Assembly: GCA_965200965.1 (NCBI GenBank)
Contig: OZ241744.1
Span: 3,417,222 to 3,481,221 of the forward strand
Direction of reading: 5' to 3'
DNA length: 64,000 nt
Source of the DNA: an uncultured Candidatus Binatia bacterium
GTDB taxonomy: Bacteria > Desulfobacterota > Binatia > Bin18
The notes beneath the pieces are model-generated. The model saw only the letters and a program-made list of their open reading frames with translations, made no database searches and was not told the DNA's origin. Shown piece by piece: positions 19,500 through 35,431 of the stretch (its first letter is position 1; each line of letters starts with the position of its first letter). The translations under genes were made by a program, and so were the position numbers.

Positions 19500-19571
19500 G
19501 CTGGCGTAGCTCAACGGTAGAGCAGCTGATTTGTAATCAGCAGGTTGTAGGTTCAAGTCCTATCGCCAGCT
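19500..19571 (+). tRNA. tRNA-Thr (anticodon TGT)
   Basis: Acceptor gctggcg/cgccagc, anticodon stem gctga/tcagc, loop ttTGTaa. Confidence 0.9.
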
Positions 19572-19605
19572 TTCTCCTGAGTGGCAAGGAGAGTCAATAT
19601 GGTGC

Positions 19606-19688
19606 GGAGAGGTGCCCGAGCGGCCAAAGGGAGCAGACTGTAAATCTGCCGGCGTATGCCTTCGAAGGTTCGAATCCTTCCCTCTCCA
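19606..19688 (+). tRNA. tRNA-Tyr (anticodon GTA), long variable arm
   Basis: Acceptor ggagagg/cctctcc, anticodon stem gcaga/tctgc, loop ctGTAaa. The core closely resembles E. coli tRNA-Tyr as I recall it. Confidence 0.9.
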
Positions 19689-19710
19689 TTCCTCAGGGAC
19701 GAATCCCAGG

Positions 19711-19787
19711 GCGGGAATAGCTCAGTTGGCTAGAGCGCGAGCCTTCCAAGCTCGGGGTCGCGGGTTCGAGTCCCGTTTCCCGCTCCA
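19711..19787 (+). tRNA. tRNA-Gly (anticodon TCC), CCA encoded
   Basis: Acceptor gcgggaa/ttcccgc, anticodon stem cgagc/gctcg, loop ctTCCaa, 3' tCCA. Confidence 0.9.
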
Positions 19788-19853
19788 TGCGCCTCACAGG
19801 ATGAGCCGAAGGACTTCCCAGTTGCGCCTGCATGTGCTTACGATCACGCAAGG

Positions 19854-19926
19854 GCCCAGGTAGCTCAGCAGGTAGAGCACGTCCTTGGTAAGGACGAGGT
19901 CGGCGGTTCAACCCCGCTCCTGGGCT
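19854..19926 (+). tRNA. tRNA-Thr (anticodon GGT)
   Basis: Acceptor gcccagg/cctgggc, anticodon stem cgtcc/ggacg, loop ttGGTaa. The Thr-Tyr-Gly-Thr-tuf order matches the thrU-tyrU-glyT-thrT-tufB arrangement known from E. coli. Confidence 0.9.
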
Positions 19927-19939
19927 GATTTTTTGCTGA

Positions 19940-21173
<1,234 letters not shown>

Positions 21174-24329: not shown

Positions 24330-27300
24330 ATGACCTTGCAGCTGGCAGATAATTTCCGCTTCCGCCGGAAGTTCGGCCAAATCGGCGAAATCACCCAGAT
24401 TCCACACCTGCTGGAGATCCAACGGCTCTCGTATGAGAAATTCCTCCAGGGGGAGCCAGGCCCGGAAGAACGGATGGAATCCGGGCTTCACGGGGTCTTT
24501 CGCTCGGTTTTTCCGATCAAGGATTTCAATGAAACCGCTTCTCTGGAGTTTGTGAGTTATACGCTTGGAGAGCCAAACTACACGGTGGAGGAATGCCATC
24601 AGCGCGGGATGACCTATGCCGCCCCCCTGAAAGTGACCATCCAACTTGTTCTTTGGGATGTTGATCCGCGGACAGAAGCCCGCACGATCAAAAATGTCAA
24701 GGAGCAGGAAGTCTATTTTGGCGAGATCCCGCTGATGGCCTCGTATGGCACGTTCATGGTGAATGGGACCGAGCGGGTTATTGTGAGCCAGTTGCACCGC
24801 TCGCCCGGGGTCTTCTTCGATCACGATAAGGGCAAGACCCACCCCAGTGGAAAATTCCTCTATTCCGCCCGGATCATTCCGTCCCGGGGATCGTGGATTG
24901 ACTTTGAGTTTGACCCGAAAGACATCCTGTATGTCCGTATTGACCGCCGCCGCAAGTTCCACGCAACGGTGTTGCTGCGGGCTTTGGGGATGACGGTCGA
25001 GGACCTGCTCACCTACTTTTATCCGACCGATACCATTACTGTTGAGGGCGGTCGTGCCACCAAAAAATTCCAGCCGCAGCTCCTGCTCGGTCTGCGCGCG
25101 ACCCACGATGTCCGACATCCGAAAACCCAGGAGGTGCTGGTCAAAGAAGGACGCCGGTTCACCCGTAACGCGATCAGACAGATGGAGGCCGCCGAGGTTG
25201 AGCAGATCCCGATTGGCCTTGGAGAGATTGCAGGCTCGGTCACAGCCCATGATGTGCTTGACCCGGAGACACAGGAAGTCCTGCTTGAGTGCAACCAGGA
25301 GTTGAGCCAGGACGACCTTGACCGCCTGATTGAGCGCAAGGTCTCGACCATAGAGACATTCTGTATTGACGAGTCCCCCATTGGTCCATCCCTGCGGAAG
25401 ACCTTGCTCCAGGACATCCAGGACAAAATTGTTTCTCCCGAAGAGGCCAAGAAGGAGATTTATCGTCGCCTCCGTCCCGGAGATCCGCCAGCGGCCGAGG
25501 CGGTAGGGGTTTTCTTTGAAAACCTGTTCTTCAACGCCGAGCGTTACGATCTGTCCAAGGTTGGCCGCCTCAAACTCAACTATAAACTCCAACGTGATAC
25601 TCCGCTCGATCTGGGGACCCTGCGCAAAGAGGATATCCTTGAGGTCGCACGGTATCTGTTTGAGTTAAAAAACGGCAACGGGGTCGTTGATGATATTGAC
25701 CATCTTGGCAACCGGCGGGTGCGGGCGGTCGGGGAGTTGGTTGAGAATCAGTTCCGGATTGGCCTGGTCCGCATGGAGCGGGCGGTCAAAGAGCGCATGA
25801 GCCTCCAGGATGTCGAGACCCTGATGCCCCAGGAACTGGTCAACTACAAGCCTGTGTCGGCCGCGCTGAAGGAATTTTTTGGATCGAGCCAGTTGTCGCA
25901 GTTCATGGACCAGACCAACCCCTTGTCTGAAGTGGCCCATAAGCGGCGTCTGTCGGCCCTCGGACCGGGCGGCTTGACCCGGGAGCGGGCCGGTTTTGAG
26001 GTCCGGGATGTGCATCCGACCCACTATGGACGGGTGTGTCCTATCGAGACACCCGAAGGGCCGAATGTCGGGCTTATTGCAAGCCTGTCAACCTACGCCC
26101 GGGTGAATGAATTCGGCTTTATTGAGACGCCGTACCGCAAAGTTGAGGATGGTCGGGTGACGCAGGATGTGCAGTATTTGTCTGCCCTTGAAGAAGAGAC
26201 GCAGACTATTGCCCCGGCCGACGCCCCAATTGACGAGGACGGGCGGTTTATCCCAGACCGCCAAGGCCAGGTTTCTTCCCGCCAGCGCGGCGAACCTGAG
26301 CAGGTCCAGCCTGATCAGGTCCAGTTGATGGACGTGTCTCCCACCCAGTTGGTGAGTGTTGCCGCGGCCCTGATTCCCTTTCTGGAACATGACGATGCGA
26401 ACCGCGCCCTGATGGGTTCGAACATGCAGCGCCAGGCAGTTCCCCTGCTGCGAACCGAAGCGCCGCTGGTTGGCACTGGGATGGAACAGGTCGTTGCCCG
26501 GGATTCCGGCGTGACGGTCGTCGCCCGCCGGAGCGGCTTTGTTGAAAGTGTCGATTCCAGACGTGTTGTGATTAAGGCGGATACGCCGCTCACTGCCGGC
26601 GATGCCACGGTCGATATCTACCCGCTCATCAAGTACCAGCGTTCCAATCAGAACACCTGTGTGAACCAGCGGCCGATCGTCAAAGTTGGCGACTCTATCA
26701 AGGCCGGCGATGTGATTGCCGATGGACCGGCCACCGACATGGGGGAGTTGGCCCTGGGCAGGAATGTCCTGGTCGCGTTCATGATCTGGGAGGGCTACAA
26801 TTTTGAAGACTCCATCCTGGTCAGCGAGCGTATGTTACGCGAGGATGTGTTCACTTCGGTGCATATTGAAGAATTTGAATGCGTTGCCCGCGACACCAAA
26901 CTCGGTCCAGAAGAGATCACCCAGGATATCCCGAATGTCGGTGAAGAAGCCCTCAAGGACCTTGACGGCAGCGGTATTGTCAGGATCGGCGCTGAGGTGA
27001 GGCCGGGCGACATTCTGGTCGGCAAGATCACACCCAAAGGCGAGACCCAGCTCTCTCCCGAAGAGAAGCTGCTCCGCGCCATCTTCGGCGAAAAAGCCGG
27101 AGAAGTCCGCGATACCTCGCTGCGTATCCCTCCCGGTGTTGAGGGCACGGTGATCAATGCGCGCGTCTTCTCTCGCAAGGGGGTGGAGAAAGATGAGCGG
27201 AGCCAGAGCATTGAGGACGAAGAGGTTGAGCGACTCCGCAGAGACCAGGAAGATGAAATCCGGATTGTCCAGGAGAGCACATTCGGAAAAGTCCGCGACC

Positions 27301-28448
27301 TGACGCTGGGCAAAGTTCTGACCGTTCGGATCCGCGACGAGGAGACCCGGAAGGTCCTGTTTCCCAAAGGCCACGAGATTAGCGAAGAGGTGCTGCGGGC
27401 CATTCCCCCCGCATACTGGGGCCGGCTCAGGCTTGGCGATGAGGCGATTGAGGACGAACTGAGCCAGAGCGTCGCCGCCATGCTGGAGCAGATTGGCCGG
27501 ATTCGTGAAGAGTCTGAGAAGAAGGTTGAGAAGCTCCGCGGTGGGGACGAGCTGGCACCCGGCGTCACCAGGATGGTGAAAGTCTTTGTCGCCATGAAAC
27601 GCAAACTCCAGGCCGGCGATAAGGTGGCTGGGAGACACGGCAACAAAGGCGTACTGTCCCGGATTGTGCCCGAAGAAGATATGCCGTATCTGGCCGACGG
27701 GACCCCGGTTGATGTCGTCCTCAACCCGCTGGGCATGCCCTCACGGATGAATCTCGGGCAGATTCTTGAGACCCATCTCGGCTGGGCCGTGCGGGGCCTC
27801 GGCGAGCAGATGGGCAACAGCCAGCCGACGCAGTGCAAAGACCGCCGTGCCCGACTCCAGGATGTCTATGACAACAAAGACCTTGTTGACACAATTCAAG
27901 CCTTGCCGGCGTCTGATCTGAACCGCCTGATTGAGCGCGCCCAGACCGGGGTGCATGTGGCAACGCCCGTGTTCGACGGTGCTCCGGAAAAAGAAATTTC
28001 TGACCTGCTGCAAAAGGCCGGCTTGCCCGAATCTGGACAAACCGTGCTCTATGACGGGCGAACCGGCGAGCGTTTCGATGGAGATATAACGGTTGGGGTG
28101 ATGTACATCCTGAAGCTCCACCATCTTGTTGAGGACAAAATCCACGCCCGCTCTACCGGCCCCTATTCGCTGGTGACCCAGCAGCCCTTGGGCGGCAAGG
28201 CCCAGTTTGGCGGACAGCGGCTGGGAGAGATGGAAGTGTGGGCTCTTGAAGCCTATGGTGCGGCCTATAGTCTGCAAGAAATGCTGACGGTCAAGTCGGA
28301 CGATGTGGCCGGTCGGACCCGTATCTATGAGGCGATTGTGAAAGGAGACAATGTACTGGAACCAGGGCTTCCCGAATCGTTCAATGTCATGGTCCGAGAA
28401 CTGCAAAGCTTAGCGCTCAACGTCGAACTGCTTGAGGACGACGAATAG
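24330..28448 (+). CDS. rpoB: DNA-directed RNA polymerase subunit beta
   Basis: 1372 aa. Motifs read: [28 protein letters not shown] and [17 protein letters not shown]. Confidence 0.97.
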
Positions 28449-28467: not shown

Positions 28468-31400
28468 ATGGAAGATCTTCTTGGCCTTTTTGAGAAGCCT
28501 CAGAATCCGGTCCGTTTTAATGCTATCCGGGTCGCGCTGGCCCCTCCCGATATGGTTCGTTCCTGGTCGCACGGAGAGGTCAAGAAGCCTGAAACCATCA
28601 ACTACCGCACATTCAAGCCCGAGCGCGACGGCCTGTTCTGCGCCAAAATTTTTGGTCCGACCAAAGATTACGAGTGTAACTGCGGCAAGTACAAACGGAT
28701 GCGTCACCGTGGGGTCGTGTGTGAAAAGTGTGGTGTTGAGGTGATTCAGTCCAAAGTACGCCGGGAGCGGATGGGGCATATCCCCCTGGCCAGCCCTGTC
28801 ACCCATATCTGGTTCCTCAAAAGCCTGCCGAGCCGGATTGGCACCCTGCTGGATATGACGCTCAAGGATCTTGAACGGGTCCTGTATTTTGAGTCGTATA
28901 TTGTGACCGACCCGCTCCAGACGCCGCTGAGCAAGAAACAGGTCCTGTCCGAAACCCGCTACCGGACACTGCTTGAGGAGTTCGGTTCTGGCAGTTTTCA
29001 GGCTGGAATGGGAGCCGAGGCGATCCGGCTGTTGTTACAGGAGTTGAATCTGGAAAAACTGGCCGAAGAGTTGCGCGCCGAGCTGATGGAAACGGGGAGC
29101 GAGGCGCGCCGCAAAAAGATCACCAAACGCCTCAAGGTCATCAACGCGTTTCGGCACTCCGGCAATCTGCCCGAATGGATGATCCTGGAAGTGGTTCCGG
29201 TCATTCCTCCCGACCTCCGCCCCCTCGTGCCTCTGGACGGCGGGCGCTTTGCCACCTCCGACCTGAATGATCTGTATCGGCGGGTGATCAACCGCAATAA
29301 CCGCCTCAAACGCCTGATTGAGTTGAGCGCGCCCGACATCATTGTTCGCAATGAAAAGCGGATGCTCCAAGAGGCAGTTGATGCCTTGTTTGACAATGGC
29401 CGGCGCGGGAAGCCCTTGACCGGGCCCAGTAAACGGCCGCTCAAGTCCCTGTCCGATATGCTCAAAGGCAAAGGCGGACGTTTTCGGCAGAACCTGCTCG
29501 GCAAACGGGTGGACTATTCGGGCCGGTCCGTCATTGTGATCGGTCCCGAGTTGCGCCTGCATCAGTGCGGGTTGCCCAAGCATATGGCCTTGGAACTGTT
29601 CAAGCCCTTTATCTACAACAAGCTCGAAGAACGGGGCTATACTACGACCATCAAGAGCGCCAAAAAGATGCTGGAACAAGAGCGCCCGGAAGTCTGGGAT
29701 ATCCTGGACGAGGTTATCAAGGAGCATCCGGTTCTGCTCAACCGTGCCCCAACCCTGCACCGGCTGGGCATCCAGGCGTTTGAGCCCGTCCTGATTGAGG
29801 GCAAGGCAATTCAACTCCATCCCCTGGTCTGCACGGCCTATAACGCCGATTTTGACGGCGACCAGATGGCGGTTCATGTGCCCCTCTCGGTCGAAGCCCA
29901 GGTCGAAGCCCGTACCCTGATGATGTCAACCAATAACATCCTGTCACCCACCCACGGCAGGGCGGTTATCGCCCCGACCCAGGATATTGTGATGGGCCTG
30001 TATACCATGACCCGTGAGCGGCCCGGGGCAAAAGGTGAGGGGAAAATCTTCAGCGGTCCAGACGAAGTTCGTATTGCCTACGATCAGGGTCAGGTCGCAC
30101 TCCAGGCTCAGATCAGGGTCCGCATGGACGGACAACTGGTCGAGACAACGGTCGGGCGGATCGTGCTGTATGATATCGTGCCGCCTGAGATTCCGTTTTC
30201 TGAAGTCAACCGGACGATGAAGAAAAAGGAGTTGGGCAGCCTGCTGGACAGCGCCTTTCGCAAAGCCGACAACAAAGCCACCGTCATTTTTGCCGATCGT
30301 CTGAAGGATATGGGCTTTGAGTACGCAACCAAAGCCGGAATCTCATTCGATATTCGAGACATGGTGATCCCCAAGAAAAAAGAGGAACTGCTCAACACCG
30401 CCCAGGCGGATATCCAGGAGATCCAGGAGCAGTACTACAAGGGGCTTATCACCGATGGCGAGCGTCATAACAAAGTCGTTGATACCTGGGTCACGGTCAC
30501 CGATGAGGTGGCCGATAAAATGCGCATCGGTTTTCGGGAGGATCGTCAGGGATTCAACCCTGTCTTCATGATGGCTGACTCGGGGGCGCGGGGTAGCACC
30601 CAGCAGATGCGCCAACTGGCCGGGATGCGCGGGCTGATGGCAAAGCCATCCGGCGAGATCATTGAAACGCCGATCACTGCCAACTTCACAGAGGGACTGT
30701 CTGTCTTGCAATACTTCATTTCAACCCACGGGGCACGCAAGGGTCTTGCCGACACCGCCCTGAAAACAGCCAACTCGGGCTATCTGACCCGCCGTCTGGT
30801 TGATGTGGCCCAAGACTGCATCATCAGCGAACACGACTGCGGCACAATTGACGGCATTGAGATGGGCCCGCTGGTTGAAGGCGGAGAAATCATTGAGGGG
30901 CTGGGCGAGCGCGTCCTCGGCCGGGTTGCCCTTGATGATATCCGCGATTCGTTCTCCAACGAAGTCTTCGTTCCGGCCAACGAAGAGATTGACGAGGAGC
31001 GGGTGCAGCGGATTGAAGACACCGGTATTGAAAAGCTCTCGATTCGCTCGGCTTTGACGTGTCAGAGCCGACGCGGGGTGTGCATCAAGTGCTATGGGCG
31101 TGACTTGGCGCGTGGGCGTATGGTCAACATCGGTGAAGCGGTTGGCATCATGGCGGCCCAGTCAATTGGCGAGCCCGGCACCCAGCTTACGATGCGGACC
31201 TTCCACATCGGTGGAGCGGCCAGTGACGAGGCAAAAATAGCGGACCGGTCCACCCGCAACGGGGGGACGCTGCGCTATATTGCTCTCAAGACGGTCAGCA
31301 ACCGTGAGGGCGATCAGGTCGTCACGAATCGGAACGGTAAGGTCGCTATTGTGGACAGTTCATCAGGTCAGGATCGGGAGTTGGAGCGTCATTCGATTGA

Positions 31401-33153
31401 GTACGGGGCGAAGCTCAAGAAAAAGGACGGGTCCACAGTCGAACCGAAGGAACTGATTGCGGAGTGGAACCCCTACATGGTTCCTATCCTGACCGAGGTC
31501 GCCGGCACGATCAAATTCGTTGACATCAGTGAAGGCATTAATATGGAGGAGAAGGTTGATGAGGCTGGTTTATCGACCCGGGTCATCATCCCAATTCAGA
31601 CTGATTCGTTGGCTGAGAAGATACACTCTTGTACCGAGGAGATAACCAAACTGGAGGAGGAGCAACATCCAGAGGAGATTCGTAAGAAGTACACAGGGAG
31701 GATAAGAAGTCAGAAAACCAAGAGGGCTGCTCTGCAGGACGAGTTGAAGCAGATGCAAAAACCCAAGCCTCCTGATGTTGAGTGGTTTTTCGGGCTTCAG
31801 ATACACTCTTGTACCGAGGAGATAACCAAACTGGAGGAGGAGCAACATCCAGAGGAGATTCGTAAGGCGTACACACGGAGGATAGAAAGCAAGAGGGCTA
31901 CTCTGAAGGGCGAGTTGGAGCGGATTCGTAAGGCGTACACACGGAGGATAGAAAGCAAGAGAGCTACTCTGCGCGAACGGGAGGACGAGTTGGAGCAGAT
32001 GCAAAAACTCAAGCCTCCTGATATTGAGTGGTTTTTCGGGCTTCAAATGCTTGAGGAGATACGCTCTTGTACCGAGGAGATAACCAAACTGGAGGAGGAG
32101 CAACAGGAGGAGATTCGTAAGGCGTACACACGGAGGATAGAAAGCAAGAGAGCTACTCTGCGCGAACGGGAGGACGAGTTGGAGCAGATGCAAAAACTCA
32201 AGCCTCGCATCTTGATCAAGGACGATAAGGGGAAAACAGCCAAGCTGCCCAGCGGTCCTGATGCGGTCTATACGCTTTCTGCTGGTACCCGTGTTGACGT
32301 GGTTGAGGGCCAGCAGGTTGAAGCGGGTGACGTGCTGGCCAGGATTCCTCGAACCACTTCACGCAAGACGAAAGATATTACGGGCGGTCTGCCTCGAGTG
32401 GCAGATCTGTTTGAAGCCCGAAAACCCAAGGAATTTGCCGTCATCAGCGAAATTGATGGCATGGTGTCTTTTGGCAAGGATACCAAAGGCAAGCAGAAGG
32501 TTGTCATCACGCCGGATGTGGGAGATCCGCGTGACTATCTTATCCCGCGTGGAAAACATATCAGTGTCCGCGAGGGTGATTATGTCCGGGCCGGCGACCC
32601 CCTGATGGACGGCTCGCCCAATCCGCACGACATCCTTGGCGTGCTCGGAGAAAAGGAACTCGCCAAGCGGTTGGTTGATGACGTGCAGGAGATTTATCGC
32701 TTGCAGGGTGTCCATATGCACGACAAGCATATTGAGGTCATCATTCGCCAGATGATGCGCCGGGTGGCTGTCACCCAGGTCGGCGATTCTGATTTTCTGC
32801 TTGGCGAGCAGGTCGAAAAATGGCGATTCCAGGAGGAGGTCGAAAAGGTCCTGGCCGAGCAAGGTCAACCGCCCGAGGCGAAATCACTCCTCATGGGTAT
32901 CACCAAGGCCAGTCTATCGACCGACAGCTTTATTTCCGCGGCTTCATTCCAGGAAACGACCAAGGTGCTGACCGAAGCCGCCATCAATGGGAAGGTCGAT
33001 ATGTTGTCGGGGCTCAAAGAAAACGTCATTATGGGCCGACTGATCCCAGCCGGGACCGGCAACCCCAGTTATACTGCAATTGAGGCCGAGACTGTCGAAG
33101 CGCCGGGTGATGAAGAACAGGGTCAACTGCCGCCGATAGTTGAGGCGTCGTAA
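28468..33153 (+). CDS. rpoC: DNA-directed RNA polymerase subunit beta-prime (1561 aa, with a repeat insertion of about 195 aa)
   Basis: Catalytic [12 protein letters not shown], zinc motif CNCGKY..CEKCG, and trigger-loop arms FHIGGAAS / [19 protein letters not shown]. The ATG at 28468 (MEDLLGLF) was chosen. Confidence 0.97.
31621..32206 (+). repeat. In-frame tandem repeat array inside rpoC (three imperfect units plus an internal 63-nt duplication)
   Basis: 31621-31686 matches 31801-31866 exactly (66 nt, period 180). 31924-32017 matches 32113-32206 exactly (94 nt, period 189). The encoded units read [22 protein letters not shown]...QMQK.KPPD.EWFFGLQ. Confidence 0.9.

Positions 33154-34197: not shown

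Positions 34198-35431
<1,234 letters not shown>

Follow-up and report, generated by a model that had tools for sequence, protein, structure and literature searches.

The rpoC locus and the position of the insert

We analyzed a 64,000-nucleotide (nt) stretch of DNA from an uncultured Candidatus Binatia bacterium (assembly GCA_965200965.1, contig OZ241744.1, positions 3,417,222 to 3,481,221), hereafter the window, and within it a repetitive block of 196 amino acids (aa) that is nested in SI3 (beta'In6), the trigger-loop insertion domain of the RNA polymerase beta' subunit encoded by rpoC. The gene stands in the usual rpoB-rpoC-rpsL-rpsG-tuf cluster. Its alternative start is a TTG at 28432, and the ATG at 28468 gives the 1561-aa form, which is identical to the database protein P0001 on a 3.62-Mb contig. 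The features of the gene are collected in Table 1.

Both trigger-loop arms (aa 896-919 and 1302-1322) are intact and canonical. Between S919, the end of the FHIGGAAS motif, and K1302 lie 382 aa, of which about 190 form an E. coli-like SI3 and about 195 the extra block. In searches of PDB sequences with phmmer, the flank up to ...GLSTRVII aligned with E. coli beta' 919-1062, and the flanks aligned with 919-1057 and 1072-1173 of Pseudomonas and Xanthomonas chains. Since the alignment holds on both sides and leaves only a short gap, the block stands in place of an SI3 loop of about 10-14 aa. In E. coli this loop corresponds to the 11 residues at about D1063-D1073 (DSAERTAGGKD), the N-side coordinate being given by phmmer. 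The first-pass annotation of this DNA had placed the block at the same junction within the trigger-loop SI3, a position that the PDB and inter-arm alignments uphold; it had given about 375 aa between the arms, slightly short of the measured 382, and had assigned about 185 outer residues to SI3, close to the 190 found here.

The location between the trigger-loop arms identifies the host domain as SI3, and its fold agrees: in a Foldseek search of an AlphaFold2 model, the flanks matched the E. coli SI3 crystal structures 2AUK and 4IQZ with template modelling (TM) scores of 0.80-0.84, normalised to the target. The N-terminal part closes with the equivalent of the SI3 beta-ribbon, whose strands lie at about 31540-31590, followed by the beginning of the first helix. 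Trigger-loop insertions are characterised by SBHM domains, and the outer 190 or so residues conform to this, whereas the 196-aa block is predicted to be entirely helical and has no SBHM or other Pfam match. The host domain is therefore SI3, but the module inserted into it is of another type.

Table 1 Features of rpoC and of the block nested in its SI3 domain (positions in the window)
Feature	Coordinates	Strand	Description	Basis
rpoC (RNA polymerase beta')	28468..33153	+	1561 aa	open reading frame list; Pfam Rpb1 domains 1-5; identical to database protein P0001
Trigger-loop N-terminal arm	31153..31224	+		aligns to PDB beta' chains from residue 919; invariant in 40-sequence alignment
SI3, N-terminal part	31225..31617	+	beta' aa 920-1050	phmmer against PDB; AlphaFold2 strands E31-147; Foldseek match to 2AUK/4IQZ
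Nested insert	31618..32205	+	beta' aa 1051-1246, 196 aa; charged tandem repeat, predicted all-helical	repeats, alignment, AlphaFold2, heptad analysis; not in P0003/L003
Repeat unit 1	31621..31800	+	60 aa; older unit type, closest to the units of L002	repeat families; comparison with P0002
Repeat unit 2	31801..32046	+	82 aa including nested duplication	tblastn of unit against window; repeat families
Nested direct duplication in unit 2	31851..31982	+	66 nt / 22 aa, copies from 31851 and 31917	start-to-start spacing 66 nt; protein sequence
Linker	32047..32058	+	4 aa, MLEE	between unit 2 and unit 3
Repeat unit 3, truncated	32059..32205	+	49 aa; terminal KLKP directly joined to SI3 strand RILIK	98% identical over 101 nt to unit 2 copy
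SI3, C-terminal part	32206..32370	+	beta' aa 1247-1301	second phmmer stretch; AlphaFold2 strands E353-400
Trigger-loop C-terminal arm	32371..32433	+		phmmer against PDB; alignments

Repeat anatomy and composition of the block

The block is built from three imperfect copies of a unit of about 60 aa, as the first-pass annotation had described, with lengths that differ through an internal duplication in the second and a truncation of the third (Table 1). Its repeats fall into two families, one of 96 nt with three copies (starting at 31619, 31799 and 32057) and one of 101 nt with four (31671, 31851, 31917 and 32106, spaced by 180, 66 and 189 nt), and the unit copies are mutually 93-98% identical. 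A 37-mer of the unit occurs three times against zero expected from shuffled sequence, and the repeats of the block are the sole local direct-repeat family of 40 nt or more in the window. Tandem Repeats Finder called no tandem repeat at the block because the units differ by indels. The duplication inside unit 2, earlier given as 21 aa, measures 22.

Charged residues make up 45% of the block, with a net charge of zero. Its GC content of 48-51% agrees with the earlier description, in which the contrast with a downstream value of 65% was overstated: downstream rpoC has 55-57%, and only within tuf, at about 34350-34650, does the GC content rise to 65%. The low GC content stems partly from a Glu/Lys/Arg-rich composition and partly from a lower GC content at third codon positions (60.7% against 69.0% in the rest of rpoC; at second positions, 34.7% against 38.9%). 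Codon choice is atypical as well, with ATA used for 10 of 15 Ile residues in the block as against 1 of 80 in the remaining gene, and AGR codons for 9 of 22 Arg residues as against 2 of 89; the usage is still atypical when each unit position is counted once. These codons point to a sequence not long exposed to the translational selection that acts on the other parts of rpoC. The block also has strong strand asymmetry (AT skew +0.32, GC skew +0.26). An antisense open reading frame of 207 aa with a low-complexity translation (31570..32193, minus strand) overlaps the insert. Rather than a gene, this frame is most likely a side effect of a sense strand that is repetitive and rich in purines.

The block recurs in independent assemblies

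The block is present in five independent assemblies from different samples, with an open reading frame in all of them. Three are contiguous through the block and have an identical unit order with point differences only: besides the window form, these are the strain variants P0121 (contig L001) and P0122 (L085), which come from separate metagenome samples and carry scattered substitutions both inside and outside the block. Short reads cope poorly with 180-nt repeats that are 93-98% identical, and in L084, from a fourth sample, the block contains a 100-N scaffold gap within the repeat, which is the behaviour expected of short reads at a true repeat. The fifth assembly, L002 (PANK22-1 SAMN12290759 scaffold_2602), encodes in P0002 a version of 105 aa whose units are rearranged but whose junctions are exactly those of the window form (TD(S/P)L...QKLKPRI), with internal duplications of its own and a deletion of most of the turn motif, which becomes TKLKGPLIEK. 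With the same architecture in P0001, L001, L085 and L084 and a divergent form in L002, an assembly artefact or chimera, which the first-pass annotation had named among the things that would refute its reading, is extremely improbable.

The nested duplications arose independently in the two lineages, and all indels preserve the frame. Since the junctions are shared between the window-type and L002 versions, we infer one insertion event followed by continual in-frame remodelling. Since the essential C-terminal arm of the trigger loop is encoded downstream of the block, conservation of the frame is uninformative about function.

Predicted structure of the block

An AlphaFold2 model was computed for beta' residues 895-1344 from the 40-sequence alignment (mean predicted local distance difference test (pLDDT) score 64.7, predicted TM score (pTM) 0.40). 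The SI3 flanks are modelled as beta-strands and the block as entirely helical, with helices at beta' 1046-1066, 1068-1095, 1109-1122, 1129-1180 and 1187-1243 (query 152-172, 174-201, 215-228, 235-286 and 293-349) and turns at the (K/L)KPPD(V/I)EWFF motifs. The last two helices, of 52 and 57 residues, have pLDDT values of about 66-83, as against less than 55 in unit 1. Hydrophobic heptad periodicity was assessed through enrichment at positions a and d, which was 0.353 against 0.25 +/- 0.034 in composition-preserving shuffles and was reached by 3 of 500 shuffles. Long helices with heptad periodicity, as in a coiled coil or helical hairpin, are thus what the model and the shuffles predict, in line with the long helices that had been proposed from the charge pattern.

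Distribution and search for relatives

Similarity of beta' groups the organism with metagenome-assembled genomes labelled Candidatus Binatia (phylum Binatota). A scan with the SI3 flank returned 80 representative genomes from Binatia and neighbouring lineages. In 78 of them the inter-arm distance is 203-212 aa, two carry a different insert, and the repeat block is found in none. The closest relative, P0003 on the 3.60-Mb contig L003, is without the block; in its place stands the ancestral loop DFRDxNxRP (VIVDFRDQNLRPRILLKDD), in agreement with the Binatia consensus. Outside SI3, L003 is 98.1% identical to the window over 11.3 kb (rpoB, rpoC, rpsL, rpsG, tuf, rpsJ and rplC). Organisms that resemble one species at this locus are therefore polymorphic for the presence of the block.

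No homologue of the block was found by an exhaustive HMMER search of 1.84 billion representative proteins, among Pfam domains or among PDB sequences. The single HMMER match, P0124 (E 1.8e-4), was rejected as an unrelated repetitive open reading frame. Scans of genome, metagenome and viral contig collections with the unit alignment returned pattern matches only, none of which was confirmed. Nor was a source of the unit found elsewhere in the window by tblastn and sensitive blastn in all frames and on both strands with the insert masked; the best match (E 0.29), 18/19 nt in reverse complement at 32410-32428, was judged to be chance. A word-index search of 5.8 billion proteins with the insert only was uninformative, having missed the identical P0001, which local phmmer finds at 4e-113; such searches missed P0001 twice and are unreliable as negatives for low-complexity or repetitive queries. 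No description of a trigger-loop insertion that is helical or repetitive came up in a literature search; the first-pass annotation, likewise, had known of none.

The atypical codons, the third-position GC content below that of the host gene and the polymorphism among near-identical genomes would also fit a foreign or mobile in-frame element, such as an intein, a palindrome of the Rickettsia palindromic element (RPE) or miniature inverted-repeat transposable element (MITE) kind, the variable region of a diversity-generating retroelement (DGR) or a captured domain. Each form of this was sought in turn. An intein was rejected, with no match to Hint and junctions that read AEK|IHSC and KLKP|RIL. 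An RPE- or MITE-like element was rejected too, with inverted-repeat arms of at most 13 nt at 85% complementarity, none significant, and no further copies in the window or the collections. A DGR variable region does not fit the substitutions seen among strains, in which C>T and G>A predominate (10 of 14 changes in the flanks) and A-site changes are in the minority, nor the lack of a template copy in the window. A structured RNA element was likewise rejected, with no Rfam match at E <= 1 on either strand of 31300-32500. With no Pfam domain of any kind and no further copy as protein or DNA in the window or in the genome, metagenome and viral collections, we consider a mobile origin very unlikely.

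A second SI3 insert, of about 212 aa, occurs in other Binatia (P0032, P0033, P0039-P0055, P0119 and P0123; contigs L035 = OZ246887.1 and L042 = CBDBEO010000004.1). Its site is 9-10 residues downstream of that of the window block, equivalent to about 32230 after RILIKDD (RPRISIKDD | V(K/R)...AFKTVN | KTAKLPSG). A hydrophobic stretch within it, IRSTP(I/V)xVAAGLI, is conserved, an unusual feature on an RNA polymerase surface. The insert is polymorphic, being absent from P0007 and P0031 and present in P0032, with the remaining protein 99-100% identical. A BLASTP hint of kinship between the two inserts (E 0.015) was not upheld by profile-profile comparison with hhalign (probability 0.3%).

SI3 as a hypervariable domain

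Differences among the three close strains were counted separately for the insert, the N-terminal flank of SI3 and the remaining beta' protein. In the insert there are 4-10.5 nonsynonymous and 1-2.5 synonymous differences per pair, giving a ratio of nonsynonymous to synonymous differences per site (pN/pS) of 1.0-1.4 from few sites. In the SI3 N-flank 8-13 nonsynonymous and 0 synonymous differences were counted per pair, and in the remaining beta' pN/pS is 0.23-0.37. SI3 with the insert differs from the remaining protein at Fisher p 0.0003-0.007. The differences between close strains in the SI3 flanks, most of them C>T and G>A, are all nonsynonymous, and pN of the N-flank (0.028-0.045) exceeds the synonymous divergence of the remaining gene (0.014-0.023). 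The case for omega >1 is only marginal.

The same contrast extends beyond the close strains. Within the subclade P0001-P0006 plus P0029, the SI3 flanks are 63-80% identical against 94-98% in the remaining protein, while in other Binatia the two identities are close (for example 86% against 91%). At the nucleotide level, SI3 of the window (31225-32370) is 84.8% identical to that of L003, as compared with the 98.1% of its surroundings. Other members of the subclade carry different SI3 indels, for instance the N-linker insertions in P0006 and P0029. SI3 as a whole is thus a hypervariable island in this subclade, of which the repeat block is one expression. Elsewhere in rpoC, at about 30300-30900, identity to L003 also dips, though less far (90-93%).

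Synonymous divergence between the window and L003 is 0.20-0.31 in SI3 and 0.05 elsewhere, part of the rise being due to codons with multiple hits and to alignment near indels. In the best-aligned block of 50 SI3 codons about 2 synonymous and 9 nonsynonymous changes were counted, with no synonymous elevation, and for this reason we do not claim recombination from the synonymous divergence. The presence of the insert is at odds with the tree of the remaining gene, which places P0002 nearest to P0006 and P0004, both without the insert; this suggests either exchange of SI3 alleles or accelerated divergence.

Such a pattern raises the possibility of diversifying selection, in which SI3 and the repeat arm would be exposed to antagonists that bind RNA polymerase (phage or plasmid proteins, or toxins) and the arm would serve as a fast-evolving shield or decoy. 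The sharp bounds of the island in a locus otherwise 98-99% identical would be accounted for, as would the purely nonsynonymous differences of the N-flank with a pN above the synonymous divergence of the remaining gene, the patchy presence of the insert, suggesting allele exchange, the unrelated second insert of about 212 aa, 9-10 aa away and polymorphic among near-identical relatives, and the further rpoB surface insertions that vary among these strains. Set against this, no antagonist is known for the phylum, the nonsynonymous excess is marginal (Poisson estimate p ~0.02 for the best pair, uncorrected), more distant pairs have SI3 pN/pS of 0.5-1.4, which is not clearly above 1, and relaxed constraint yields a similar picture. 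We regard diversifying selection as unlikely. Its fullest form, that SI3 in this lineage is a hotspot of diversifying selection and allele exchange resembling a surface antigen, pressured by RNA polymerase binders near the secondary channel, with both inserts acting adaptively, as shields of variable length or as cis gates of that channel, and retuning trigger-loop dynamics, is in our judgement distinctly doubtful.

Proposed origin and behaviour of the helical arm

We consider it probable that the block is a tolerated, fast-evolving helical appendage. It would be a young, lineage-restricted, in-frame tandem-repeat expansion within rpoC, started, as the repeat anatomy suggests, by a single insertion into the loop after the SI3 beta-ribbon. 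Duplications and deletions in multiples of three, of 9-, 33-, 66- and 180-nt segments, would have followed, with slippage or unequal crossing-over in the purine-rich GAG/GAA tract driving the remodelling. The product would be a highly charged but net-neutral all-alpha arm that exits SI3 one residue past the beta-ribbon and re-enters at the next strand, leaving the predicted SBHM fold of SI3 and both trigger-loop arms unaffected. The exposure of this loop to solvent would explain why the arm is tolerated. For SI3 itself, either most amino-acid constraint may have been lost in this Binatia subclade or diversifying selection may be at work.

The position of the arm bears on what it might do. Bao & Landick describe how, in the closed state of SI3, the E. 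coli beta-ribbon (beta' 1046-1061) enters the gap between the rim helices and beta-SI1, and how in the swiveled state the same ribbon nears another part of SI1. The ribbon of E. coli SI3 aligns with the two strands directly before the block, which means that the helical arm is attached one residue after the ribbon base. According to the literature, relocation of SI3 is required in each nucleotide-addition cycle, and restricting SI3 inhibits both elongation and pausing. Because SI3 relocates in every cycle, the arm must move along, and if it is rigidly attached it would swing with SI3 each time. It would be well placed to bias, or to be constrained by, closed and swiveled docking. Bulk at the base of the ribbon might thus bias the equilibrium of open, closed and swiveled SI3, and through it trigger-loop folding and pausing, an effect that we expect to be at most modulatory.

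This setting also invites a more specific role, in which the block would be a docking site for a regulator, or a cis-acting coiled coil of the Gre/DksA kind that gates or enters the secondary channel and tunes pausing or cleavage. The attachment adjoins the ribbon whose docking site in closed SI3 lies between the rim helices and beta-SI1; factors of the secondary channel use coiled coils anchored at the rim helices (PMC10895346); as the cyanobacterial Si3 demonstrates, remote regions of the polymerase are within reach of an extended SI3 (PMC10120043); and the acidic and aromatic turn motif PPD(I/V)EWFFGLQ is conserved in the full units of window-type strains. The same motif is, however, largely deleted in L002 (TKLKGPLIEK), the number and length of the units depend on the strain (196 against about 105 aa), no homologues were found among the 1.84 billion representative proteins, in Pfam or in the PDB, pN/pS is about 1, the codons are rare, and relatives of what appears to be the same species live without the block. 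A dedicated module is accordingly improbable, and we do not think that the block is a conserved binding module. On present evidence a docking or pausing function is less likely than a weakly constrained appendage.

Several observations weigh against the view of the block as a young and merely tolerated appendage. It has been kept in two lineages that are 37% apart in their SI3 flanks, with a pS of about 0.29 between their inserts; retained across that divergence, it is not brand new, and its persistence could reflect selection. The motifs SCTEEI, KLE.EQ, EEI, DEL and QKLKP are invariant in all units of both lineages, and since there are at most 13 substitutions per close pair in the insert, there is room for purifying selection at some positions. 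On the structural side, the tertiary arrangement of the block is poorly defined (pTM 0.40, pLDDT <55 in unit 1), and in the model three long helices alone would not return the chain to its origin. We nevertheless retain the tolerated, fast-evolving helical appendage as the probable reading.

Other features of the locus

Length variation is also seen in rpoB, whose product is 1372 aa long in the window and L085, 1369-1386 aa long in L001, L003 and L084, and 1521 aa long in L002. The L002 gene carries an insert of about 150 aa (at about 2400-2900, corresponding to about 27300-27400 in the rpoB of the window) with a weak match to Mrr_cat / PD-(D/E)xK (E 0.0024, below the Pfam cut-off) that includes the motif IIECKHH; a nuclease-like domain within a beta subunit would be unusual. 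At 26295-26324 the rpoB of the window has a tandem repeat of two 15-nt copies at a spot that varies between strains, and at the equivalent site in L003 there is a tandem duplication of 22 aa (EEETQT(I/T)APA(D/N)... in two copies). In this lineage, the surface insertions in both of the large subunits are hotspots for indels.

The window contains two tuf copies of 392 aa each (19988-21166 and 34246-35424), the common tufA/tufB arrangement. The first lies behind a tRNA cluster for Thr, Tyr, Gly and Thr (19500-19927) and is followed by a tRNA gene for Trp; the window holds 12 tRNA genes altogether.

Significance and comparison with known systems

SI3 is essential in E. coli and sets pausing behaviour. 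The Binatia case shows that about 200 residues of unrelated helical repeat are tolerated on this moving part, that genomes with 98% identity at the locus may carry such a block or lack it, and that in one clade SI3 can be a hypervariable island within one of the most conserved genes known. The strains thus offer a natural experiment on how much load and change of shape the trigger-loop/SI3 machinery can bear, and they mark E. coli beta' ~1063-1073 as a candidate permissive site for engineering. Should the variation prove adaptive, it would point to undiscovered factors that target SI3. There is also a practical side: rpoC is a common phylogenetic marker, and the block region would mislead alignments and break short-read assemblies.

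Among helical surface insertions of the hairpin type are the actinobacterial beta' i1, an antiparallel coiled coil on the clamp, and the E. coli beta SI2/beta-i9. Unlike the Binatia block, these lack both coupling to the trigger loop and a tandem-repeat organisation, and each is conserved within its phylum. The second Binatia insert is nearer in position, in the same domain and at the other end of the same strand, and is similar in size and probably helical (from an AlphaFold2 model of the insert alone, pLDDT 40), but its sequence is unrelated and not repetitive.

The SI3 of E. coli beta' (beta'In6, also called the G non-conserved domain; 2AUK, 4IQZ) shares with the Binatia protein the site between the trigger-loop arms, the fold of two SBHMs and a sequence that aligns on both sides of the block; it has an 11-residue loop (~D1063-D1073) where the Binatia protein has 196 residues predicted to be helical. 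All trigger-loop insertions known from the literature consist of SBHM domains, and the block is the first non-SBHM trigger-loop insertion that we could find in a literature search. A precedent in architecture is the cyanobacterial Si3 (645 aa, eight SBHMs), which likewise reflects recursive insertion into SI3 domains and is elongated, yet allows the trigger loop to cycle and extends to remote regions of the polymerase (PMC10895346, PMC10120043). Its nested modules are SBHM/HABAS beta-domains, ancient and conserved across the phylum, whereas the Binatia block is an orphan repeat, predicted to be alpha-helical and polymorphic within what appears to be a single species.

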